Of a stretch of DNA of 15,444 nucleotides, positions 113 to 13,142 are shown piece by piece. Both the position numbers and the translations under genes were made by a program. The DNA comes from Armatimonadota bacterium (lineage in GTDB: Bacteria; Armatimonadota; Hebobacteria; CAIYQO01): contig JBBRXO010000068.1 in the NCBI GenBank assembly GCA_038248345.1, forward strand, positions 1 through 15,444, in the 5' to 3' direction. The notes beneath the pieces are model-generated. The model ran no database searches. It was not told where the DNA came from and worked only from the letters and a program-made list of their open reading frames with translations. Positions within the stretch are counted from its first letter, which is position 1. Every line of letters starts with the position of its first letter.

Positions 113-1753
113 TTACCCCAGTATCGCCTTCAAATCCGCATCTGCCGTGGTGGTGGGCATGATGTTGAAGTTCTCCACCAGCACGTTGAGGATGGCGGGG
201 GTGACGAAGGCGGGGAGGGTGGGCCCGAGGCGGATGTCGCGGATACCCAGGTGCAGCAACGTGAGGAGCACCACCACCGCTTTCTGCTCATACCAGCTGA
301 GGATTATCGACAGCGGAAGCTCGTTGACGCTGCAACCGAAGGCATCTGCCAACGCCACGGCGATTTTGATGGCGCTGAAGGTGTCGTTGCACTGCCCGAT
401 ATCCAGCAGGCGCGGCAGGCCGCCCAGGGTGCCGAACTCCAGCTTGTTGAAGCGGTATTTGCCGCACGCCAGCGTGAGAATGATGCAGTCCTGCGGGATA
501 TTCTCGGCCAGCTCGGTGTAGTAGTTGCGTCCGCTTTTGGCGCCGTCGCAGCCGCCTATCAGGAAGCAGCGCTTCAGTGCGCCGCTCTTCACCGCGTCGA
601 TGACTGTGGGGGCAACGCTCAGTACCGCTTCATGACCGAAGCCCACCAGGATGGTCTTTTCCGGGGCATCCTCGGTGAAACCTTCGGCAGCCAGTGCCGC
701 CTCGATCACCGGGGTAAAGTCCTTGTCCTCTCCGATATGCGCTACGCCAGGGAAGGCCACCAGCCCGGTGGTGAAGATGCGGTCGATATAGCTTGGCCGC
801 GGCTTCTGGATACAGTTGGTGGTCATCAGGATAGCGCCGGGGAAGGCATCGAACTCTTTCGCCTGATCCTGCCAGGCGCCGCCGTAGTTGCCTACCAGAT
901 GCGCATATTTGTGCAGTTCCGGATAGCCGTGGCACGGGAGCATCTCGCCGTGGGTGTAGATGTTGATTCCCTTGCCTTCGGTGGCTTTCAGCAGCAGTTC
1001 CAGATCGAGCAGGTCATGCCCGCTGACCACGATGGCCTTGCCCTTTATCGGGGTGACACGCACGGGGGTAGGCACCGGGTGGCCGTATTTGCCGGTATTG
1101 GCGGTATCCAGCAGCCCCATCACGGTGAGGTTGACCTCGCCGACCTTCAGTGTCATGGCAACTAATTCGCCCAGTTCGTAATTCTCGCGGCAGAGGAAGG
1201 CCAGTGCCTCATGGAAGAAAGCGAAGACTTCCGGATCTTGCTGCCCGAGGATGAGCGCGTGGTCAGCGTAGGCCGCCATGCCTTTCAGCCCGTAGGTGAT
1301 GAGCTCCAGCAGGCCGGTGACGTCGTCGCCAAACTTGGCTTTGCGGGCATCTACACCAGCGTCTGCACCCTGCTGTACTAGTCCCTCTATGGTTGCCGCC
1401 GGCACCCATTCCGCTGGGCCGCCCATCGGGGTGGCTGCGGGGGCCACTTCGGTCAGCTTCGCTGCTGCGCGCTGTTTTAGTGTGTACATTTCTTGCGCCA
1501 TCTCCTGCAAGCGGATGGGGTCGAAGTTGACGTTGGTGACGGTGGTGAAGAGGACTTTGATGACAAAGGCATCAACCTCATGGTCAACAACGCCGTAGCG
1601 GCGCAACTCATGCGCGATCATCCCCAGTCCTTTGACGCCGTAGAGCAGGCAATCCTGCAAGCGCGCCGTTGTTTCGTCTTTGCCGCACACACCGCCAGCG
1701 GTACAACCGGTCCCCCGGGCTGTCTGCTCGCACTGATAACAGAACATACTCAT
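113..1753 (-). CDS. hcp: Hydroxylamine reductase / hybrid-cluster (prismane) protein, class I, 546 aa
   Basis: N-terminal MFCYQCEQ with Cys spacing C-x2-C-x8-C-x5-C; motifs SGHDL, YTHGEMLP, TTNC, IGGCDG, TLACGK, GQCND, SWYEQKA. Start placed at the ATG at 1753 (MSMFC) because AAGGAG lies 6 nt upstream; the ORF-track start at 1798 falls inside the promoter. Confidence 0.97.
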   Translation of the reverse strand: MSMFCYQCEQTARGTGCTAGGVCGKDETTARLQDCLLYGVKGLGMIAHELRRYGVVDHEVDAFVIKVLFTTVTNVNFDPIRLQEMAQEMYTLKQRAAAKLTEVAPAATPMGGPAEWVPAATIEGLVQQGADAGVDARKAKFGDDVTGLLELITYGLKGMAAYADHALILGQQDPEVFAFFHEALAFLCRENYELGELVAMTLKVGEVNLTVMGLLDTANTGKYGHPVPTPVRVTPIKGKAIVVSGHDLLDLELLLKATEGKGINIYTHGEMLPCHGYPELHKYAHLVGNYGGAWQDQAKEFDAFPGAILMTTNCIQKPRPSYIDRIFTTGLVAFPGVAHIGEDKDFTPVIEAALAAEGFTEDAPEKTILVGFGHEAVLSVAPTVIDAVKSGALKRCFLIGGCDGAKSGRNYYTELAENIPQDCIILTLACGKYRFNKLEFGTLGGLPRLLDIGQCNDTFSAIKIAVALADAFGCSVNELPLSIILSWYEQKAVVVLLTLLHLGIRDIRLGPTLPAFVTPAILNVLVENFNIMPTTTADADLKAILG

Positions 1754-1793
1754 ATTGAACTCCTTTATGCTAGTTTGGCTAATATCTGCCCAA

Positions 1794-1822
1794 ATCATAG
1801 CAGATTTTTATCGACTTGTCTA
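1794..1822 (-). promoter_or_regulatory. Sigma70-type promoter of hcp
   Basis: Minus strand: TAGACA (1822-1817), 17-nt spacer ending in TGC, TATGAT (1799-1794), an extended -10 about 40 nt upstream of the ATG. Confidence 0.7.
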
Positions 1823-1992
1823 CCACTAAATCTGTCGTATTTAGTATATTTGCCAAAGAAGTCCAATATCCTTGTTGGTTTTTCGTACAATGTGTTAATT
1901 TGTGGCTTGTATGGCGAAGATGTCTTGTTGAAATTACAGAAAACCTTACTGTTGTTGGGGTTCGGGGAGATTTGGAGTGTTGGAAGGGTAAC

Positions 1993-2020
1993 AGATCAGA
2001 GTTTCAAGTCTCTGATCTAC
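1993..2020 (-). repeat. GTAG-type REP-like palindrome
   Basis: Perfect 9-bp inverted repeat AGATCAGAG (1993-2001) / CTCTGATCT (2010-2018); the minus strand reads GTAG followed by a hairpin, the layout of GTAG-family REPs. Confidence 0.55.
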
Positions 2021-2203
2021 CTAACCCCGGAATATTCCTACATACAAGTTGTAGATGATTGTAAAACCTCATTGACACCAGACCTGGGGAGTTGCCCCAG
2101 GGACAGATTGGATGCGAAACATCAAACCTAATGGTTTTGCAATTACCTCAAGTTGTAGATATTAAAAATAACGGGGTACTAATGGCAATAACCAATATAG
2201 GGA

Positions 2204-2307
2204 GATACTAACATAGCCTTGGGCGCAACCCGGGTAAGGGGTTAAAATCCTAAGGTGAAGCGTTCAAAAAGCCTACCCCGGGCTTCATCCGAGGCTATGT
2301 TAGTATC
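2204..2307. repeat. REPIN-like inverted doublet
   Basis: Perfect 16-bp inverted repeat GATACTAACATAGCCT (2204-2219) / AGGCTATGTTAGTATC (2292-2307); each arm continues into an imperfect hairpin ending in CCCGGG. Confidence 0.75.
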
Positions 2308-2496
2308 CGTTTGAAAGCTACTGTACCCTAGTAGCCTATATATTGAATCGGTTGTGGGCGAAGCTTTCTTTAGTGTTTGCATACAGACAACACTGGTTTG
2401 TCACTAGTTGGACGGAAACATATACATGGACTGCCGGAAAGGGTAATATAATGGTAACGGCTGATGCCGAAGAATCAAATGGAATGGTGATGTACG

Positions 2497-2928
2497 ATGT
2501 TGAATTTATCTTCTCAAGCTGATTATGCTATTCGTTCAATGATCGATATGGCGATGAATCCTGGGTTGCAGAGTACGCTACCCGCGATTGCGGATCGGCA
2601 GGGGATACCGCGCAAGTTTCTGCCGACGATATTTCAGTCACTGAATCATGCGGGGCTGATTAAACTGGTCACCGAAACTGGTGGGGTAGAGCTAGGGATG
2701 GTACCGGCGGAGATCACATTGAGGCGAATCATCGAAGTAGTGGATGGCCCGCATGAGTTGTACTTTTGCGAGATTCACGATAATGATTGCGCTGCGCGAG
2801 TGGCTTGCCGTCTGCGCGATGTCCTCTCCAATGCCAATGATATGCTATTGCAGAGCATTGAAAAAATCACGCTGGGCGATTTGATCCCCAATGATTGTAT
2901 GCTGCCCACAACTACAGAAAATGAATAA
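2497..2928 (+). CDS. Rrf2-family transcriptional regulator (NsrR/IscR-like, probable Fe-S ligands)
   Basis: LSSQADYAIR N-terminus, IADRQGIPRKFL HTH, ITLRRIIEVVDG, C-x6-C-x5-C, ITLGDL C-terminus; divergent from hcp. Confidence 0.92.
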   Translation: MLNLSSQADYAIRSMIDMAMNPGLQSTLPAIADRQGIPRKFLPTIFQSLNHAGLIKLVTETGGVELGMVPAEITLRRIIEVVDGPHELYFCEIHDNDCAARVACRLRDVLSNANDMLLQSIEKITLGDLIPNDCMLPTTTENE

Positions 2929-2946
2929 CGAAGGGACAGAAAAAAT

Positions 2947-3156
2947 ATGGATGGTACTTATCGCTCCGAAATTAACCCTGGTGATACGGTAGAGATAATA
3001 TTGAAGGCGGATCAGGCGACGGGTAAAATGACCCGCGGAGTAGTAAAAAGAATCCTCACCAGATCCTCCACTCATCCGCGCGGCATCAAGGTGATACTGA
3101 CCGACGGCCAGGTAGGCCGCGTATGTATGATAGTCGCCATGCCGAAGGTGCGGTAG
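2947..3156 (+). CDS. YwbE / DUF2196 family small protein
   Basis: Signature sequence ILKADQATGKMTRGVVKRILTRSSTHPRGIKVILTDGQVGRV, 69 aa. Confidence 0.9.
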   Translation: MDGTYRSEINPGDTVEIILKADQATGKMTRGVVKRILTRSSTHPRGIKVILTDGQVGRVCMIVAMPKVR

Positions 3157-3190
3157 TACAGCACCGCATAGAGCTGAATGATTTTTGAAA

Positions 3191-3213
3191 CACGAAGACA
3201 CGAAGGCACGAAG
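3191..3213 (+). repeat. Tandem CACGAAG x3 (8-nt period)
   Basis: CACGAAG at 3191, 3199 and 3207. Confidence 0.8.
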
Positions 3214-3359
3214 AGAGAATTGGGGGCAATTGGCGCTCCTAGGAATTCACATATATTCACCCCGAAGGCATGGCGGAATATACCCCAGGGCGGGAGCACT
3301 GGGAATGATATACCGGGGGCTGTACGCAAGGACAGTCCCCGATTGCGCACCACCACCTC

Positions 3360-3388
3360 TTGACACATTCCCCCATAATAGTTACGCT
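3360..3388 (+). promoter_or_regulatory. Putative sigma70 promoter of the RM gene
   Basis: TTGACA (3360-3365), 17 nt, TACGCT (3383-3388); 34 nt before the ATG at 3423. Confidence 0.5.
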
Positions 3389-3422
3389 GGATTCATCCAT
3401 TTATACCGGGAAGGATGCTGTT

Positions 3423-6400
3423 ATGACTGATGTGGTTGCCCCGCCGGAGTTGGCGATGCTGATTGAGCGGTTCAGCGAGCATATTGACGCCTATCGTGGG
3501 CTTGATTACAAGGAAGCGCAGGTGCGGCAGGAGTTTATTGATCCGTTTTTCAAGCTGCTGGGCTGGGATATGGATAACAACAACAGCTATGCCGAACAGT
3601 ATAAAGACGTGGTGCATGAGGATGCTATCAAAATCGGCGGAGCCACCAAGGCACCTGATTACTCCTTCCGCATCGGCGGGGTGCGCAAATTTTTTGTCGA
3701 GGCGAAGAAGCCATCGATGAATATCAAGGATGATACCGCCGCCGCCTACCAGGTGCGGCGCTACGCCTGGTCGGCCAAGTTGCCGGTGAGTATCCTCACG
3801 AATTTTGAGGAGTTCGCCGTATATGATTGCCGCAAGAAGCCGGAGTCAACCGACTCCGCTGCCACCGGGCGCATCATGTACTTCAAATTTCAGGATTATG
3901 TGAAGGAGTGGCCGCTACTGCTGGGCACGTTCTCGCGCGAGGCGATCCTCAAAGGCTCTTTCGATAAATTCGTCTCCTCCAGCAAAAACAAACGCGGCAC
4001 CAGCGAAGTGGACGAAGCCTTCCTGAGCGAGATTGAGGGCTGGCGCGACCAGCTGGCACGCAACTTCGCTTTGCGCAACCCAGATATTAGCCAACGCGAG
4101 CTGAACTACGCCGTGCAACGCACCATCGATCGCATCATTTTCCTGCGCATTTGCGAGGACCGCGGCATCGAACCCTACGGCCAGTTGCAGGCACTGCTGA
4201 ATGGCGAAGGCGTCTATCAGCGGCTGTGTACTATATTTGACCGCGCCGATGAACGCTATAACAGCGGCCTCTTCCACTTCCATACGGAGAAGGGACGCTC
4301 CGAAGCCCCTGATGGGCTATCCTTCTCGCTACTGCTCGATGACAAAGTACTAAAAACACTATTCAAGCGGCTGTATTACCCGGACAGCCCGTATGAGTTC
4401 TCTGTGTTGCCCGCCGATATCCTCGGGCAGGTGTACGAGCAGTTCCTCGGCAAAGTAATCCGCCTCACCGCCGGGCACCAGGCGAAGGTGGAGGAGAAGC
4501 CGGAGGTGAAGAAGGCGGGCGGCGTCTACTACACCCCCACCTACATCGTCGACTACATCGTGAAGAACACCGTGGGCACGCTGCTGGCGGGCAAAACGCC
4601 GCGGGAGGCGGCCACCCTGCGCGTGCTCGACCCCTCCTGCGGCAGTGGCTCATTCCTCATCGGCGCGTACCAGTTCCTGCTGGACTGGCATCTGCAATGG
4701 TACCTGGCCGATGGGGCGGAGAAGCACGGGTGCGGCAAAAGCGCCACGCTGCACCCCGCCGAGGGCGGCTGGCGGCTGACCACGGCGGAGCGCAAGCGGA
4801 TATTGGTGAATAACATCTACGGCGTGGACATCGACGGCCAGGCGGTGGAGGTGACCAAGCTCTCGCTGCTGCTCAAGGTGCTGGAGGGCGAGACCACCGC
4901 CAGCCTGACCAACCAGATGGCGATGTTTCGCCAGCGCGCACTGCCCGACCTGGGTGCCAACATCAAATGCGGCAACTCGCTCATCGGCCCCGACTTCTAC
5001 CAGCACAGCCAGCTGCTGCTGCTCGATGAGGAGGAGCACTACCGCATCAACGTCTTCGACTGGCACAGCGACAAACTCGGTTTTGGCAAGATAATGAAGG
5101 CGGGCGGGTTTGATGTTGTTATTGGGAATCCACCGTATGTTAGAATCCAAGCGATGAAAGAATGGGTGCCTGTCGAGGTTGATTTCTATAAGAAGAAGTA
5201 TTTATCAGCCAGCAAAGGAAATTATGACATATATGTCGTCTTTGTAGAAAAGGGATTGTCTCTGCTCAATCCGCAGGGATTACTGGGTTTTGTTTTACCA
5301 CACAAATTTTTCAACTCGCAGTATGGGGAAGCATTGCGTGGTATAATCGCTGATGGGAATCACCTGAAGGAAGTAGTACACTTTGGAAGCCAACAGGTCT
5401 TTCCTACCGCTTCTACATACACCTGCCTACTATTACTGCAACAATCCGATAGAAGCGTATTCCGATTCAGACAAGTGGATGACTTGGAATTATGGAAGAC
5501 CGATATGACTAGTTTTCCCGATATAAAAATCACGCAGCCAGTTGGTTCTTGCGAATGGAATTTCACTTCTCTCCTCGATAGAACTATCCTTGACAAGATT
5601 GAGCAACTTCCATATAGGTTACACGATGTCACACTGCGAGTTTTTCAAGGGCCTATCACCAGTGCCGACAAGATATTTCTCTTCAAAAAATGGAAGACCT
5701 CATTGGATAATAGCCAAATGGAAGTGTTTTCACAGGCATTAGGTTGCTGGATTACAATTGAGTCATCAATATTGAAGAAGGTTACACGTTCTGGTGATGT
5801 ATTGCCCTACTACGCGAAGAATTCTTCGTATGTGCTTTTTCCATATGCTGTGCAAAATGACCAGAAAGCTTATTTGCTTTCCGAATCTAATCTAGCTACA
5901 GATTATCCACTTGCATGGAATTACCTCTGCTGTAATCGAAGAGAATTAGAGAAACGAGAAAAAAAGAGTTTTCGTGATAATTCATGGTACCGGTTCGGCC
6001 GTACGCAAAACTTGGGGATGTGGGAACAACCGAAATTATTAGTGCCATACATGGTGAAACGTTTATGTGCATATATTGATACCAAAGATGACTTCTACTT
6101 TATCAACGTTACTACCGGCGGGTACGGCATTCTGTGTAACACCAAATATGCTTCACTTCAATACTTGTGTGGACTACTAAACTCGCGTCTACTTGGCTTT
6201 GCATTACGTCATTACTCTACGGACTTCCGTGGTGGTTATATTGCTGCAGGCAAGCAGTTTCTTGACAAACTTCCCATCCGCACCATCGACTTCGCCAACC
6301 CGGCGGAGGTGGCGTTGCATGAGCGCATGGTGGGGCTGGTGGAGACGATGCTGGCGTTGCAGCAGCAGCTGTCCGCCGCCACGCTGGAGCAGGGGCGCGA

Positions 6401-6506
6401 GCAACTGCGCCGCCGCATAGAGGCCACCGACGCGCAGATTGACGCGTTGGTGTACCAGCTATACGGGCTGACGGAGGCGGAGATAGCGGTGGTGGAGGGT
6501 CTTTAG
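3423..6506 (+). CDS. Type IIG (Eco57I/BpuSI-like) fused restriction endonuclease / N6-adenine methyltransferase with C-terminal target-recognition region
   Basis: N-terminal nuclease with EFIDPFF and PDY...VEAKK (PD-(D/E)xK); MTase motifs GVYYTP, VLDPSCGSGSFL, IYGVDID, VIGNPPY; C-terminal IDALVYQLYGLT helix. Start chosen at ATG 3423 (GGGAAGGA upstream) rather than TTG 3360. Confidence 0.93.
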   Translation: MTDVVAPPELAMLIERFSEHIDAYRGLDYKEAQVRQEFIDPFFKLLGWDMDNNNSYAEQYKDVVHEDAIKIGGATKAPDYSFRIGGVRKFFVEAKKPSMNIKDDTAAAYQVRRYAWSAKLPVSILTNFEEFAVYDCRKKPESTDSAATGRIMYFKFQDYVKEWPLLLGTFSREAILKGSFDKFVSSSKNKRGTSEVDEAFLSEIEGWRDQLARNFALRNPDISQRELNYAVQRTIDRIIFLRICEDRGIEPYGQLQALLNGEGVYQRLCTIFDRADERYNSGLFHFHTEKGRSEAPDGLSFSLLLDDKVLKTLFKRLYYPDSPYEFSVLPADILGQVYEQFLGKVIRLTAGHQAKVEEKPEVKKAGGVYYTPTYIVDYIVKNTVGTLLAGKTPREAATLRVLDPSCGSGSFLIGAYQFLLDWHLQWYLADGAEKHGCGKSATLHPAEGGWRLTTAERKRILVNNIYGVDIDGQAVEVTKLSLLLKVLEGETTASLTNQMAMFRQRALPDLGANIKCGNSLIGPDFYQHSQLLLLDEEEHYRINVFDWHSDKLGFGKIMKAGGFDVVIGNPPYVRIQAMKEWVPVEVDFYKKKYLSASKGNYDIYVVFVEKGLSLLNPQGLLGFVLPHKFFNSQYGEALRGIIADGNHLKEVVHFGSQQVFPTASTYTCLLLLQQSDRSVFRFRQVDDLELWKTDMTSFPDIKITQPVGSCEWNFTSLLDRTILDKIEQLPYRLHDVTLRVFQGPITSADKIFLFKKWKTSLDNSQMEVFSQALGCWITIESSILKKVTRSGDVLPYYAKNSSYVLFPYAVQNDQKAYLLSESNLATDYPLAWNYLCCNRRELEKREKKSFRDNSWYRFGRTQNLGMWEQPKLLVPYMVKRLCAYIDTKDDFYFINVTTGGYGILCNTKYASLQYLCGLLNSRLLGFALRHYSTDFRGGYIAAGKQFLDKLPIRTIDFANPAEVALHERMVGLVETMLALQQQLSAATLEQGREQLRRRIEATDAQIDALVYQLYGLTEAEIAVVEGL

Positions 6507-6590
6507 GTCTTTAGTCTCTTCTCGGTTATTTTCTGAACAACTTGTAGAGAATGAAGCAAGTTTTTAATGCCGGGTGGTGCAGAGAAGTCG

Positions 6591-6732
6591 TCCTCTATCG
6601 TTGTAATTCACAGGATATATGGATAATAGAGGATTATGAGGATAAGACAAACAGGGAAGTATTATCTCAAAATATTATTCTACCTTCTTATCCTGACTAT
6701 CCTCTTTATCCTTAAATCCTGTGAATTAAAGC
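6591..6732 (+). repeat. Inverted-repeat intergenic element, copy 1
   Basis: 13-bp perfect IR TAATTCACAGGAT (6604-6616) / ATCCTGTGAATTA (6716-6728), with internal GGAT and ATCC units at 9-10 nt spacing; homologous to 13190-13299. Confidence 0.88.
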
Positions 6733-6751
6733 GTTAGGGCATGATGCCAAG

Positions 6752-6980
6752 CCTTAGCGCGGCCCCGCTAAGGTATACAAATATTTAACCACGGAGTGGC
6801 GGTCAGGTAGCGCCCTTCAGTGTGCTTGATCTTATAGCCACATCCTTTAGGGTGTGGTGAACGTTTCCGCCACCCTTTCAGGGCGGAGATAATTAATGAT
6901 GCTCTAACCCGGCGCTTGCGCACCGGGCTAAAATGCGCCACCCCTTCGGGGTGGGACGCGCGCCAATGCGTAGATTGGCG
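6752..6980. repeat. Cluster of six short GC-rich palindromes (REP-like / IS200-IS605-end-like)
   Basis: Hairpins at 6752-6773, 6838-6857, 6866-6887, 6908-6927, 6938-6954 and 6961-6980. Confidence 0.7.
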
Positions 6981-7112: not shown

Positions 7113-7136
7113 GTGAGTCAATGCGGAGGAGTAAAC

Positions 7137-8429
7137 GTGGGCAGTACCGTTATTGTGGGCACCCAATGGGGTGACGAGGGTAAAGGGCGTGTGGTGGATG
7201 TATATGCCGCCAACGCGCTAGTTGTGCGTTTCCAGGGTGGGGACAACGCCGGGCATACGGTGAAGATCGGGGAGCAGTCGTTCGCGCTGCATCTGATCCC
7301 ATCCGGTATCGTGCGCGAGCGCCCGTGCGTGCTGGGCAACGGCATGGTGATTAATCCCAAGTCGTTGCTGAAAGAGATCGCTGATCTGGAGGCCAAGGGG
7401 ATCAACGCCCGTCCGCATATCCATATCAGCGAAGATGCGCACCTGATTATGCCGTACCATCTGGCGCTGGATGCCGCGAGCGAGCGCGCCATGGGCAAAG
7501 GCAAAATCGGCACCACACTGAAGGGCATCGGCCCCGCTTACACCGATAAATACAGCCGTGTCCACGGTCTCCGCATGGGTGACCTGCGCAATGCTGATTA
7601 TTTCCGCACGCGTCTGGAGGCTATCGTCGCCGACAAGAACGACGTGCTGACGAAACTGTATGACTGGGAGACCACCTTCTCCGCAGATGAGATTTTCGAC
7701 GAGTACATGAAGTACTACGAAGAGATCAAGTCGATGATCTGCGACACCGCCGAGATGATCTGGCAGGCGATTCAGCGTGATGAAGAGGTGCTTTTTGAAG
7801 GCGCCAACGCCACCATGCTGGATATTGATCACGGCACCTACCCGTATGTCACCTGTTCGACACCGACCGCTGGCGGGGCGGCTGTCGGCTCTGGCGTCGG
7901 CCCTGGCTATCTGGGCAATGTCATCGGGGTAGTGAAAGCCTACACCAGTCGCGTGGGCTAGGGGCCTTTCCCCACCGAATTAAATAACGCCACCGGCGAG
8001 CGTATCCGCGAGCTGGGGCATGAGTACGGCACCACCACCGGGCGTCCGCGCCGTTGCGGCTGGCTGGATATCTGTGTGCTGCGCAAAGCAGTGCGCGCCA
8101 ACGGGCTGGCCTATATGGCGCTCACCCATCTGGATGTTATGGGCGAATTCGACGAGATCCCTCTCTGTGTGGCCTATGAGATTGATGGCAAACGGGTGGA
8201 TACCTTCCCCAGTTCATTGTGGGAAGTGGAACGTGCCGTGCCGATCTATGAGATCATGCCCGGCTGGAAGACATCGCTGGATGATTGCCGTTCCTATGCT
8301 GACCTGCCGGTAGAAGCGAAGGCGTACCTGGATCGTATTGTCGAGTTGACCGGAGTGCCACTCTGTATGGTCACTGTGGGCAGCGAGCGTAATCAGACGA
8401 TTATTCTACGCGATGCCTCTACTATGTAG
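7137..8429 (+). pseudogene. purA: Adenylosuccinate synthetase, full-length frame (430 codons) broken by one in-frame TAG at 7959-7961
   Basis: GTG start with GGAGGAG RBS; QWGDEGKG, RFQGGDNAGHT, IGTTLKGIGPAY, LDIDHGTYPYVT, then YTSRVG*GPFPTEL, EYGTTTGRPRRCGWLD. The two ORF-track pieces (7113-7961, 8076-8429) are in the same frame. Gene identity is secure; pseudogene versus sequencing error versus readthrough is unresolved. Confidence 0.85.
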
Positions 8430-8463: not shown

Positions 8464-8566
8464 CGTTTCAGCTGGTCTCCCAGGCCGCAAACGCAACTTT
8501 TTCCGCTCGCTGGTGTTTAATAATATATAACTCGGTGTAAAACCGTCAGGGAATTTGTTACTAACT

Positions 8567-9817
8567 ATGAAGATCTTCGCTAAATTATTGCTCATCTGTA
8601 CTTGCTGTTGTATGTTGCTGGCGCCACTAGCCGTGCTGGGAGAAGACCCCCCCAAGCCGTTGCAGATTGATGCAACCGCCAATGGCTGGACTGTCAGCGC
8701 CATCAACGTAGATGCCCATGAGTTGTTGACTTCGCTGGCGGCAAGCGCTCATATGCAGATGATCGTCGATGACACCGTGCGCCGGCAGGTGACCATCCAT
8801 ATTATTGATCGTCCGGCATTGGATATTCTGAAGATAGTCGCTAATGTCTACGGTTTTTCCACGGCAGAGATCAACGGAGTGCAGTTGGTCTCGGAGGGAG
8901 CGCCGCGTTCCCCGGCTTCCTATTTGCTGTCGGATATCACCACTATCTCGACGAAGTTCGTTACTCCTGACTCGGCGCGGGCCTTATTACCGTCGTTTTT
9001 GCAAAGTTCAGTAGCGGTTAACAGTAATCGTAACGCGCTGGTGCTTTCCGGGCCGAAATCAATCCTCGACAAAGTTCGCCAGGATGTTGAGATGTTCGAC
9101 AAGCCGACGCAGCAAATTATGTTAGACGTCAACGTGGTGGAATTTACCGATATGGATACGGACAAATTCACCGCCATGCTGGGCGAAAAGAACGCCAAGG
9201 TTGGCGTGACGACCGATTCTCTCACCGGGCAAGTGACGTTATCAGCATTGACGACACTGCCGACAGATTTCAATGTGCAGTTGAACGCACTGGTGACTAA
9301 CCGGAAAGCGCGGGTACGCGCAAATCCGCGTATCGCCACCATTACTGGGCAGTATGCCTCAATTTTCATCGGACAGCAGCAGTATCTCAATGGTTCCAGT
9401 TCCATTTCCGCCGGTGTGTCCCTCGCAGTGACACCGTTTACCGGTGGCGATGGCGATATTATCCTGGATATGACTGAAGAGATCAGTACCTTAAGCGCGC
9501 CGGAGGGTAGCTCCACCGTACCGACCAAAACTCAGCGTACCGCCAAGAGCAACATCCGGGTACGTGATGGCCAAACGATCATCATCGGTGGCCTAAGCCA
9601 GGATGAAGTGCGTACGGTACGGCGTTCCATTCCTATTCTGGGCAACCTGCCGTTAATCGGCAATCTATTCCGCTCCAAAACCACTGAACATACCAAGGTG
9701 GACTTGGCGATCTTCATCACCGCCCGTCTGTTAACACCTACCGGACATCTGCCCAACGAAGATATGAAGCAATTATTGCCAGCAAATACCACCATCAAAA
9801 TGGGAATAGCTCAATGA
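8567..9817 (+). CDS. Secretin (GspD/PilQ superfamily), short form: signal peptide, STN/N0-like domain, one N domain, secretin core
   Basis: QIMLDVNVVE, ANPRIATITGQYASIFIG, AGVSLAVTP, IRVRDGQTIIIGGL, IPILGNLPLIGNLFR, LAIFITARLL. Start placed at ATG 8567 (MKIFAKLLL signal peptide). Confidence 0.9.
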   Translation: MKIFAKLLLICTCCCMLLAPLAVLGEDPPKPLQIDATANGWTVSAINVDAHELLTSLAASAHMQMIVDDTVRRQVTIHIIDRPALDILKIVANVYGFSTAEINGVQLVSEGAPRSPASYLLSDITTISTKFVTPDSARALLPSFLQSSVAVNSNRNALVLSGPKSILDKVRQDVEMFDKPTQQIMLDVNVVEFTDMDTDKFTAMLGEKNAKVGVTTDSLTGQVTLSALTTLPTDFNVQLNALVTNRKARVRANPRIATITGQYASIFIGQQQYLNGSSSISAGVSLAVTPFTGGDGDIILDMTEEISTLSAPEGSSTVPTKTQRTAKSNIRVRDGQTIIIGGLSQDEVRTVRRSIPILGNLPLIGNLFRSKTTEHTKVDLAIFITARLLTPTGHLPNEDMKQLLPANTTIKMGIAQ

Positions 9818-11448
9818 AGCTCTGGGCATGGCTGGCAATATCGCTGGCAGGCATATGGTTGACACCAGTAGTTACCTGGGCACAATTAGCAGAACGTGCT
9901 ACTGTGTTGACTGACGTAACGGTGGAGAAGCGCGCCAATGTGCTGCGCATCCGCTTGAGTACGGATGGCCCGGTGAGCCTGCAGCAATCTAGTGGTCTGA
10001 CGAGTCAATACAAACGGATAGCGTTTATCTTGCCGAACTCCCGCTACACTGTCCCCGATTTTATAAATGTTGATGTATTTCCGGTGAGCCATCTGGAGTT
10101 CGCCCCAAGTCCTGATGAGCCGCAGGATGTGATGTGTACCATCGTGAATTACACCGAGGTGGTGTTTGCGGCATTGGGGGGGCAGGATTACAGCCAGTAT
10201 GCGTCTGCCGGCGCTTCCCGGGTGCTGATCTCCAATAATTCTCCTACTGAGATTCTGATCCAGATCACCTTGGATCGCAGCAACGCCGGGAAAGATTTCA
10301 CCCGCACGCCCGCGCAATGTACCGTCACGGGAACACGTGACTCATTGACGTTGAAGTGTATTAATACGAAACTGGGTACAGTAGTAGATAAACTGTCAGA
10401 GGCAACGCAGATCCCCATAAATCTGGACCTGGAGACAGAACCAGCGGTGAGTGTGAATATGGAAAACGTAGTGCTGGAGCGGATATTGGATTCGATAGCA
10501 TTGGGATATGGACTGAACGTAGCGAAAACCGGGCAAAAGATAATCGTCACCACCGGTGTGCCTAAAACTGGTTCGTCATATGCGCTAGCCAGCCAACGCA
10601 CTATTCAATTGCAGTATCTATCATCTGATGAGTGCATGAAATTATTACCCCAAGCGGCGCTCCCGATGCTGAAAGCGAATGAGGATGGGAGATCGTTAGT
10701 CGCCGCTGGCACCCCGATGATGTTGGACAAAATTGTCCGTGATGTGGCGGTTATTGATCAGCCGTCTTATCATGTAAATCTGCAAGTCACCACCATCTCC
10801 AGCGATGCCACGGATGACGTCATCAATAGTATCGACCGACTGCTTTTTGACGGGCATACGAAGATTGATTTGCCAGAGCAGGGGATATCAGTATCCGCAG
10901 GGAAAACGAATAGTAATGATATGTTGGCATCGTTGCAAGGGCTGCTTACATCACGGGTGGTTACGATTAAATCAGCCCCGGGCATCCAGGTAATCAACGG
11001 TGAGACTGCCTCGCTTTTTGTCGGCCAGACGATAAATCTTATCGTGGAGTCGAACGGCAATGCAAATTTGACGGCTATCGATGCTGGCACGATGCTGAAT
11101 GTTACCCCGCATACCAGTAGTGAGTGGGTAAATCTTACTACTAAAGTGGAGAATTCGTTTTTGCAGGAAGAGAATTCCCTAGGCCCGTTAATCAGCTCGC
11201 AGAAGGTAAACACTACCTTACGGATAAAATCTGGTGACACCTTGATTATCGGAGGGTTACGGGTAAAAACAGAGGAAGTGCAACGCGAAAAGATTCCGTT
11301 AGCGTTGCGAAGGTTCAAGGTATCGGCGGACATTCCTACCAAATATCGCTCCAATAAGGCAGTTCGTGCCACCTGGGTATTACTATCTGCCACGACATCA
11401 GCGACCGCGCTGGCGAACCCGCGCAAAATGAATGAGGTATTAAGATGA
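9814..11448 (+). CDS. Divergent secretin with N-terminal AMIN-like domain
   Basis: Signal peptide; LTDVTVEKRANVLRIRLSTDGPV; PGIQVINGETASLFVG, AGTMLNVTP, LRIKSGDTLIIGGL; ATGA overlap with the upstream gene. Confidence 0.82.
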   Translation: MKLWAWLAISLAGIWLTPVVTWAQLAERATVLTDVTVEKRANVLRIRLSTDGPVSLQQSSGLTSQYKRIAFILPNSRYTVPDFINVDVFPVSHLEFAPSPDEPQDVMCTIVNYTEVVFAALGGQDYSQYASAGASRVLISNNSPTEILIQITLDRSNAGKDFTRTPAQCTVTGTRDSLTLKCINTKLGTVVDKLSEATQIPINLDLETEPAVSVNMENVVLERILDSIALGYGLNVAKTGQKIIVTTGVPKTGSSYALASQRTIQLQYLSSDECMKLLPQAALPMLKANEDGRSLVAAGTPMMLDKIVRDVAVIDQPSYHVNLQVTTISSDATDDVINSIDRLLFDGHTKIDLPEQGISVSAGKTNSNDMLASLQGLLTSRVVTIKSAPGIQVINGETASLFVGQTINLIVESNGNANLTAIDAGTMLNVTPHTSSEWVNLTTKVENSFLQEENSLGPLISSQKVNTTLRIKSGDTLIIGGLRVKTEEVQREKIPLALRRFKVSADIPTKYRSNKAVRATWVLLSATTSATALANPRKMNEVLR

Positions 11449-13142
11449 TTAGAAGTTCACAATTAAGCATTATGATCATGCTACTGGCAGTACTGGCGAT
11501 ATTCAGCGCCCTCCCGGCACACGCCGAGGCCTATTGCTACCTCAATTCAATGAAAGTTGATTCGCTGAAGAATGGGATGCAGGTCACCGTATCGGCGGAT
11601 GGGATCCTTTCCTGGGCGTGGGCAACTGGTATCAGTGTGCCGGTGATGACGGCTACCATCAACTTCACCTCCACGCGCCAGGCGTTGGACAAGACATTTT
11701 ATTCCATCAGCAAAGACCCTCTCAACTCCGTGCTCTTCACTGAATCCGCCGACGGTAAAACGGTTTCAATGGTCATGAGTATGACGCAGGCGTCGCGGAT
11801 TTCTGCGGTTGCCAGTGAAGATCGTCAGTCATTGATCATCACCATATTTTCCGCCTATACAAATGAAACCAGACCGACAACGACAGCTGGGCAACAGATA
11901 AAGGCCGGGAGTTTTACCATCACCCGGCATGGTGACCAGGTTGATGTGGTAGCGATAAAAGCAGAGATTAAAGCGCTCATCTCTGATCTCGCGCTGAAAT
12001 GCGACTTGAATGTCGCCGTTCACGATGGAGTGAATCACAATATCAGTATCAATATGCAGAATAAAACCCCGGTAGAGGTACTGCAGGGGATAACCGCTGG
12101 GTATGGGCTGGCGCTCTCGAAGGATAATGACGTCTATATGATCAGCGAGGGTGTGCCGGCGGATCTGTCTACCTATCAGCGTAGTAGCACCGCTACCTTC
12201 CCGATGAAGTACCTGCGCGCTTCTGATGCCAAAACGCTGCTCCCCTCGTTTCTCTTCCTCTATATTCGCGACAATCCGCTGCAGAATGCGGTGGTCGTCA
12301 CCGCCCCCTCCCAGCTTATCGACAAAGTCGGGCGCGACCTGAAAGTACTCGATACTCCGCCCGCGATGGTGATGATGGAATGCGCGGTGGTAGAGCTCAC
12401 TAATTCCAACGACTTTCATTCAGAATTGAAAGCGCAGTTTCAGGATAAGAGGCATGATGTGAGTAGTAACTCTACTACCGGCGCTATTAACTTCCATGCC
12501 TTGGATTTGAATGGCCTCGCCACGGCCATCGCTCCGACGCCGATACTGAAGAGCGTATTGCAGGCGCTCATCACAAAGGGTAGTGCGGTCGTAAAAGCCC
12601 ACCCGTCGATGGCGGCGGTGAATGGCAAAGCTGCAGAAATCAAGGTTGGATCAGTGCGTTATATCAGATACACCGCGGGGAGCAATACCACGGACTCTTT
12701 CATGCCGGTAGAGGTGGGTACCAAACTCAATATCACACCATCCACCAGCGGCGCCAAGGAGATCACCTGCTCGATATCGGTAGAGATGTCAAACATCGTG
12801 CAGATCAACCTTGCCACGGGCGTACCCCGTGTCAGCAAGCGTACGGTGAGCACCACGCTGCGCACTCTGGATGGTGAGACCATTATCATCGGAGGTCTCT
12901 CGCTGATGCAGGACGAGAATGCCAACCAGAAGGTACCCGGCCTGGGTAATGTCCCGCTACTGGGGCAGTTTTTTCGCAGTAAGAGCAAAAGCGCCAACAC
13001 TACCGAGTTGGTAGTGCTCATCCGTCCACGTCTGCTGGACGCCAGCGGTCACCTTCCCACCGAAGATGATACCATCTATCGCACCAAGTTCCTCCAGCCC
13101 GGCGACTTGGGATACGTAGGGCCGGCAGTGGTGAAAAAGTAG
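11445..13142 (+). CDS. Secretin with N-terminal AMIN-like domain
   Basis: Signal peptide ending AHA; VMMECAVVE, AHPSMAAVNGKAAEIKVG, VGTKLNITP, DGETIIIGGL, VPGLGNVPLLGQFFR, ELVVLIRPRLL; ATGA overlap with the upstream gene. Confidence 0.92.
   Translation: MIRSSQLSIMIMLLAVLAIFSALPAHAEAYCYLNSMKVDSLKNGMQVTVSADGILSWAWATGISVPVMTATINFTSTRQALDKTFYSISKDPLNSVLFTESADGKTVSMVMSMTQASRISAVASEDRQSLIITIFSAYTNETRPTTTAGQQIKAGSFTITRHGDQVDVVAIKAEIKALISDLALKCDLNVAVHDGVNHNISINMQNKTPVEVLQGITAGYGLALSKDNDVYMISEGVPADLSTYQRSSTATFPMKYLRASDAKTLLPSFLFLYIRDNPLQNAVVVTAPSQLIDKVGRDLKVLDTPPAMVMMECAVVELTNSNDFHSELKAQFQDKRHDVSSNSTTGAINFHALDLNGLATAIAPTPILKSVLQALITKGSAVVKAHPSMAAVNGKAAEIKVGSVRYIRYTAGSNTTDSFMPVEVGTKLNITPSTSGAKEITCSISVEMSNIVQINLATGVPRVSKRTVSTTLRTLDGETIIIGGLSLMQDENANQKVPGLGNVPLLGQFFRSKSKSANTTELVVLIRPRLLDASGHLPTEDDTIYRTKFLQPGDLGYVGPAVVKK

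Follow-up and report, generated by a model that had tools for sequence, protein, structure and literature searches.

What might three adjacent secretin genes build when no secretion or pilus genes stand beside them? The question is raised by a contig of an Armatimonadota bacterium (JBBRXO010000068.1, assembly GCA_038248345.1), which in its entire length of 15.4 kb is the window analyzed here, belongs to a genome of 2.98 Mb that is 95.7% complete, and carries, between purA and argH, three intact plus-strand open reading frames (8567–9817, 9814–11448 and 11445–13142). An earlier note on this DNA had described these as secretin paralogues coupled by ATGA overlaps and flanked by purA and argH, and had suggested that they encode a mixed-subunit channel or a stand-alone export or import system. 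The overlaps and the flanks are as it claimed, and the conservation and clade tests that had been set beforehand as possible refutations did not refute its interpretation, of which the stand-alone part came out weaker. Within the Armatimonadota the three genes are an old module that is kept whole or absent in the genomes searched. With a probability of roughly 0.55, we favor the reading that the three genes are a fixed-order operon whose products co-assemble into one mixed-subunit, gated outer-membrane channel with its motor acting in trans.

All three genes encode members of the secretin superfamily, both by PF00263, with scores of 121.9, 68.0 and 127.3 bits for genes 1, 2 and 3 against a cut-off of 27.5, and by the fold of the AlphaFold models, which cover genes 2 and 3. 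These models have a mean predicted local distance difference test score (pLDDT) of 83.4 (gene 2) and 77.9 (gene 3), contain the N3 region and match solved secretins, the top Foldseek match of gene 3 being PilQ of V. cholerae (6w6m, E 5e-17). Gene 1 (8567..9817, + strand, 416 amino acids (aa); ATG start at 8567, alternative in-frame TTG at 8555) encodes a signal peptide, N0, N3, a compact secretin domain with an intact amphipathic loop and a short C-terminal tail, and has no AMIN domain. In the sequence its stop codon overlaps the start of gene 2 in the ATGA at 9814..9817 (+), a junction at which −4 overlaps are common in relatives. Gene 2 (9814..11448, +, 544 aa), the fastest-evolving of the three, encodes a signal peptide, an AMIN-fold domain (approximately 9886..10275, +), N0, N3 and a secretin domain, of which PF00263 matches only profile positions 7–136. 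Its amphipathic helical loop (11293..11349, +) is degenerate yet in frame, the motif being absent and the pLDDT below 50 at model residues 467–470 and 479–488. The second ATGA overlap in the sequence (11445..11448, +) leads into gene 3 (11445..13142, +, 565 aa), with a signal peptide, an AMIN-like domain, N0, N3, a secretin domain with an intact amphipathic loop and a C-terminal helix.

The architecture of gene 1 is therefore N0–N3–secretin and that of genes 2 and 3 AMIN–N0–N3–secretin, in agreement with the short first gene and the AMIN-like N-termini of the other two that the note had described. PF03958 (N3) is matched in all three proteins, at 29 bits in gene 1 and weakly in gene 2, gene 1 has a weak match to PF21305, and gene 3 also matches PF07660; all three N-termini, read by eye, contain hydrophobic stretches resembling signal peptides. 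Pfam detects no AMIN domain in the three proteins. For gene 2 the assignment comes from the fold, since the first 130 residues of the model (residues 2–131 of the domain match) align with AmiC (4bin; Z 9.1, root-mean-square deviation (rmsd) 4.0, 106 aligned) and with the B2 domain of Neisseria PilQ (4aqz; Z 8.6, rmsd 3.1, 101 aligned), and for gene 3 the lead consists of AMIN clusters in the Atlas (best score 0.88). The linker motif said to be common to the three proteins was found in all three translations, where it marks the end of N0 and the N0–N3 linker. The paralogues share 31% (1–3), 25% (1–2) and 26% (2–3) pairwise identity.

Retention of the triplet was surveyed in 151 Armatimonadota genomes, each at least 90% complete (below, f1–f36 are family codes of the search tool, and G and L are genome and locus codes). 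Position 1 is present in 51 of these genomes; position 3 was matched in 49 of the 51 and in no other genome. In the two genomes without a position-3 match (G040 and G086), contigs stop in or just past gene 2. A looser search for position 2 found 56 genomes, the five extra ones having other secretin types, and with contig ends allowed for, none of the 151 genomes holds a lone triplet member. By family, the triplet occurs in 6/6 genomes of f2, 12/14 of f7 and 8/14 of f18, and in none of the sampled genomes of f9, f10, f12, f13, f19, f20, f23 and f29. In the source genome's own family, G000, G001 and G006 have it, whereas the five members sampled do not. Relatives with titles are Armatimonadota, apart from one titled “Bacillota” whose matches share coordinates with those of a same-class genome, and a completely sequenced carrier, Abditibacteriota IAD-21 (L077), is on record. 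The one other phylum sampled in this way, that of a record labelled Firmicutes, yielded in 151 genomes single secretins only (276–303 bits) and no position-3 orthologue. The contig scan gave matches with an alignment as query and none with a single protein.

Gene order was surveyed in 100 loci picked for triplet-like matches, 84 of them distinct, with lower-scoring secretin loci assigned to the outgroup. The order 1-2-3 is complete in 64 of the 84 and no other order was seen; the remaining 20 have contig ends, one N-gap, frameshifted copies or gene 3 elsewhere. Metagenome loci show 1-2-3 in 48 of 80 cases, the rest being cut by contig ends, and one locus printed as “32”, with both frames open at the contig start, is read as a sorting artefact. 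No fused 1-2-3 protein is present among the best 150 matches, no search restricted to longer proteins having been made. Because the ordered triplet recurs across the phylum, its arrangement is not due to chance.

Phylogenies were built with FastTree (59 complete triplets plus other secretins) and IQ-TREE (25 of the 59 plus 76 others), the tree being rooted on the PilQ of contig C2 of the source genome without a formal root test. Positions 1, 2 and 3 are each monophyletic, with Shimodaira–Hasegawa-like approximate likelihood ratio test (SH-aLRT) values of 87.5, 99 and 87.8 in IQ-TREE; FastTree agrees, and two apparent intruders in its clades are copies of the window's own genes. Positions 2 and 3 are sisters (SH-aLRT 85.6) and the triplet as a whole is a single clade (SH-aLRT 100). 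None of the three positions groups with the pilus or type II secretion system (T2SS) secretins of these genomes, and since the clades span the phylum, the old duplication that the note had suspected is borne out. The three clades derive from two old duplications, for which we infer that gene 1 split off before the gain of AMIN and that genes 2 and 3 separated last. The sister group of the triplet (SH-aLRT 99.8) consists of STN-repeat secretins, including the GspD of complete Halanaerobiales T2SS operons.

The three positions have diverged unequally, most visibly in the amphipathic loop, which according to PMC6155069 and PMC7545093 is better conserved than any other secretin sequence and has a central part in membrane insertion. 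In a regular-expression test of 101 triplets (the 59 plus 42 from metagenomes, not deduplicated, with an effective number of 68), the loop motif is retained in 96 copies of position 1, 35 of position 2 and 98 of position 3 (54, 17 and 56 copies, respectively, within the 59). It is missing in 66 position-2 copies, source gene 2 included, as against five in position 1 and three in position 3, and only at position 2, in 27 copies, is the loop segment shorter than 38 residues. Mean identity within a position is 54% (1), 29% (2) and 51% (3), and the C-terminal motif G[HRQ][LI] occurs in 4/59 copies of position 2 versus 44/59 and 17/59 of positions 1 and 3. For 33 disjoint pairs, the ratio of nonsynonymous to synonymous substitution rates (dN/dS) has a median of 0.12 at position 1, 0.26 at position 2 and 0.12 at position 3, and every one of the 33 position-2 pairs lies below 0.52; from the value of 0.26 it follows that gene 2 is relaxed but under purifying selection and is not decaying. 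Position 2 retains both barrel-edge motifs and N3, and positions 1 and 3 have distinct, near-invariant N3 and gate signatures. Folding the N3–secretin cores of the three subunits as a complex with subunit 2 as partner scored 0.01 in both runs, controls not being folded, and counts neither for nor against a mixed ring; an underpowered analysis of inter-subunit covariation in the 101 triplets scored expected-adjacent strands no better than non-adjacent controls.

The claim that the triplet has no accompanying secretion or pilus machinery holds at the locus and fails genome-wide, where a type IV pilus system is encoded together with a secretin that belongs to it. No neighbor is conserved beyond single lineages, the best being dnaX-ybaB-recR in 10 of 55 clustered loci, and no pil gene recurs in these 55 or among the nearest neighbors of the 84 loci, which were read by eye rather than scanned with Pfam. 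The source genome has five secretin matches, namely the triplet, a 1107-aa secretin on C2, which is the PilQ of a pilM-N-O-P-Q-pilB operon, and a 704-aa orphan on contig C21. It also contains several PilB/PilT-type ATPases, three T2SSF genes, 20 pilin-motif matches, BamA and one TonB-dependent receptor. As the type IV pilus has its own PilQ, the triplet is additional to it. The stand-alone system proposed by the note is weakened by the T2SSE ATPases (PilB/PilT-type), which match 151/151 genomes, so that a motor shared in trans would be undetectable by co-occurrence.

Five candidate partners were profiled over the 151 genomes and dropped, none of them tracking the triplet. An orphan MshEN-PilT-like ATPase has full-length orthologues in the triplet-negative families f1 and f4 as well, the large pilin-cluster protein of contig C44 matches 109/151 genomes, the C21 orphan secretin is confined to family f1 (6/151), and BcsB occurs in 7/151 genomes and in 0/51 with the triplet. 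Wza-type export domains, profiled as well, are near-universal (148/151). PF03934, the fifth candidate, matches 26/51 triplet genomes versus 68/100 others, and because it matches monoderm controls too, it is not a specific T2SS marker. The apparent linkage to a T2SS in G027 proved to be adjacency across a scaffold N-gap, and a role in a flagellar ring was abandoned since FlgH and FlhA were not found in the source genome. The C21 orphan (L007 12409–14523, G000) carries a long insert rich in Asn, Gly and Tyr. Loci L132 (7881–12528) and L133 (7111–8739) hold three MshEN plus PilT-like ATPases, with full-length orthologues in the same class only; two of the three adjoin a T2SSF gene whose product begins with a zinc ribbon.

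Co-assembly of the three subunits in one ring, for which the support is indirect, seems to us somewhat more probable than not, because the triplet is retained all-or-none, its order is fixed, its genes are coupled and a subunit that often lacks the loop is never dropped. It also counts in its favor that three coupled paralogues without a pilotin neighbor are the opposite of the arrangement argued for in PMC3230066, according to which bacteria keep separate secretins apart and so avoid mixed and probably non-functional multimers. Given co-assembly, a motor acting in trans is marginally favored and is the simplest guess, because T2SSE ATPases are present in every genome while no candidate tracks the triplet. 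Co-translation would then supply near-equal amounts of the subunits, and contacts through N3 and the barrel edges would line them up around the ring in 1-2-3 units, of which a 12-mer would hold four and a 15-mer five. The membrane-insertion loop would come from subunits 1 and 3, which would carry subunit 2 in, the AMIN domains of subunits 2 and 3 would anchor the ring to peptidoglycan, and N0 would dock an inner-membrane partner. Opening and power would probably be supplied in trans by the motor of the type IV filament, which is ubiquitous in the phylum. Cargo is the weakest step, folded proteins or a specialized pilus being a first guess because the sister group is of T2SS type.

Several observations weigh against such a channel. 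The paralogues are merely 25–31% identical, and at such identity known secretins form separate rings. Gene 3 is relocated in G059 and G032, two genomes of one genus that retain all three genes, and at L100 just genes 1 and 2 are seen; the genes thus need not be strictly coupled. The 35 position-2 copies with a canonical loop could in principle form rings alone, the 51 carriers belong to related genomes and are not independent cases, no candidate partner tracks the triplet, and the pilus operon of the source genome already has its own PilQ, which leaves the motor in trans a proposal.

Low paralogue identity would suit three independent homo-oligomeric secretins, co-regulated for one process and serving, for example, different cargo, as would the position-specific N3 signatures, which could enforce self-recognition, and the ability of gene 3 to relocate; the solved structures matched by the gene 2 and 3 models are, presumably, single-subunit rings as well. 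Independent rings should however be lost one by one, whereas no lone member was seen, and 66 position-2 copies without the loop fit poorly with a self-inserting homo-ring, so we regard this explanation as improbable. A little more credible, though still unlikely, is an accessory role for subunit 2. Subunits 1 and 3 would then form the pore, in mixed or separate rings, and subunit 2 would not be their equal in it but an assembly chaperone, a regulator of ring size or gating, or a minor subunit. It would account for the roughly twofold dN/dS, the lower identity within position 2 and the frequent loss of the loop and of G[HRQ][LI], and it has a loose precedent in the mitochondrial GspD with its divergent GspDL (PMC8134430). 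Against it stands that gene 2, coupled between genes 1 and 3, still has the complete fold in a model of good confidence, along with N3 and both barrel-edge motifs. That gene 2 is divergent and its Pfam match truncated might otherwise be ascribed to a tandem duplication, recent or neutral, in which gene 2 is decaying, a reading very hard to reconcile with clades that span the phylum, a fixed order and purifying selection in every position-2 pair.

The fourth explanation concerns the motor rather than the ring and overlaps with the favored reading on co-assembly. On this view neither a pilus motor nor a T2SS motor drives the channel, whatever its stoichiometry, which would serve as a nozzle for polymers or as a gated pore for uptake; we consider it doubtful, if the least so of the alternatives. 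The missing conserved neighbor and tracked partner agree with it, as does the location of a related Armatimonadota secretin in a BcsB/GT2 synthase locus, and secretins are described as slime nozzles in cyanobacteria and Myxococcus in PMC12475490. BcsB is however matched in none of the triplet genomes, the near-universal Wza-type domains leave no evident gap, conservation extends to N0, and T2SS GspD proteins are part of the nearest sister group.

None of the known secretin systems compared here resembles the triplet in full, and none of the three proteins reaches the NCBIfam cut-offs for GspD, PilQ, SctC, HofQ or MshL. HofQ has the N0–N3–secretin layout of gene 1, and is single-copy within hofMNOPQ. 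The match of gene 1 to this DNA-uptake secretin of the HofQ/ComE kind (NF010083) is weak, at 79 bits against a cut-off of 554. The type IVa PilQ of V. cholerae (6w6m; PMC7545093) shares the AMIN–N0–N3–secretin layout of genes 2 and 3, each of which has one AMIN-fold domain, gene 1 having none; but PilQ is one gene, nearly always in pilMNOPQ, whereas the triplet consists of three paralogues without pilMNOP, scores 119, 43 and 111 bits against the TIGR02515 cut-off of 284, and lies far on the tree from the source genome's real PilQ at another locus (C2). The Halanaerobiales STN-repeat GspD (L099, L106, L120), in the nearest sister group, has the same compact N3–secretin core, but it is a single gene that ends a gspE-F-pseudopilin operon, with several STN repeats and no AMIN, in contrast to a triplet without N1/N2 or gsp neighbors. 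Scores of 124, 40 and 138 bits against the TIGR02517 cut-off of 351, together with only one N3, set the three proteins apart from the GspD layout N0-N1-N2-N3-secretin-S.

Closer in number is the mitochondrial set of GspD, divergent GspDL and split GspDN, co-occurring paralogues of which one is divergent and for which the authors suggest an elaborated pore; it is eukaryotic, has split domains, is kept with GspE/F/G, and is not an operon of three full-length subunits (PMC8134430). The slime nozzles likewise show a secretin used beyond pili and protein export, although each employs one secretin reused from a type IV pilus or T2SS and the triplet has three (PMC12475490). The SctV/FlhA export gate (PF00771) of type III secretion was not found in the 95.7% complete source genome. 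For the Tad secretin RcpA, the three proteins have no BON match and no tad neighbor was seen, Tad families having not been searched genome-wide.

The searches also brought up other secretins of unusual organization. L111 (3–3237; record titled Clostridia) has two tandem secretins of 434+ and 646 aa that are sisters on the tree and represent an independent secretin duplication. In L096, L102, L104, L105, L107, L112, L117, L269, L270 and L271, a short secretin stands right behind an Ig-fold gene and small secreted proteins, and no ATPase is encoded in the vicinity; the loci come from records titled Planctomycetota, Zixibacteria, Ignavibacteria, Omnitrophota and Bacillota, plus Armatimonadota; these short secretins form one clade (95.1), three of the seven Ig-fold genes scanned have weak WxLIP_PGBD matches, and the loci may represent an undescribed secretin-plus-chaperone surface system. 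L267 (7120–18489, G150), with the same layout in L268 (G110), has an 858-aa LysM-secretin with a WxLIP-like pair of secreted genes on one side and, on the other, BcsB, a 399-aa protein and a GT2-MshEN synthase; the LysM-secretin looks like the outer-membrane pore of this exopolysaccharide synthase, in triplet-negative genomes. A single chain of 2113 aa (P0142) combines a BlaR1-type M56 peptidase domain with five STN and four secretin stretches.

Around the operon itself, Rfam gave no match, no RNA holder is listed and promoter-like sites occur at chance level only. No phylum-wide motif lies upstream of gene 1, the TCTAA-containing words there being confined to at most six loci. Where they recur, in loci of f2 and f18 and in a few others, these words (GCGTCTA in six loci, GCATCTA in five) form a weak signal that is partly kinship, and we take them to resemble the −10 element of extracytoplasmic function sigma factors. 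The upstream gene purA (7113–8429, +) is interrupted by one in-frame TAG at 7959–7961, with PF00709 matching both halves and no CTA-anticodon tRNA among the 46 tRNAs found; a base-calling error or recent mutation is most likely. The rest of the window is ordinary, with a hybrid-cluster (prismane) protein, an Rrf2 regulator and a 1048-aa Eco57I-type restriction-modification enzyme at 113–6953 and an Acido-Lenti-1 RNA match at 6908–6953.

In the open-access literature, subscription papers not being covered, we found no description of the operon or of a natural mixed secretin, although tables of PMC6668835 may include some of the genes among its secretin hits. The triplet is a real and old module of known parts in a new and apparently undescribed arrangement, a fixed-order operon in about one third of the searched genomes of one phylum in which one subunit sheds the family's most conserved motif. 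Its matched series of loops that are present, degenerate or deleted would allow a test of the amphipathic loop in insertion independent of the BAM complex. Secretins are treated as single-subunit rings of 12–16 copies, and the triplet offers a natural test of a pore made from specialized subunits; a mixed ring, if true, would differ from all single-subunit secretin rings solved so far. More speculatively, and with a likelihood that we rate as low, it could be an obligate three-subunit secretin, the first of its kind, built of 1-2-3 repeats (C4 12-mer or C5 15-mer) with every third subunit lacking the membrane-anchoring loop, asymmetric and possibly laterally open, whose partner or class of cargo has no relation to the pili and secretion systems known so far. 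If such a three-subunit ring with an unrelated partner or cargo were true, the Armatimonadota would have an envelope transport machine of a new kind.

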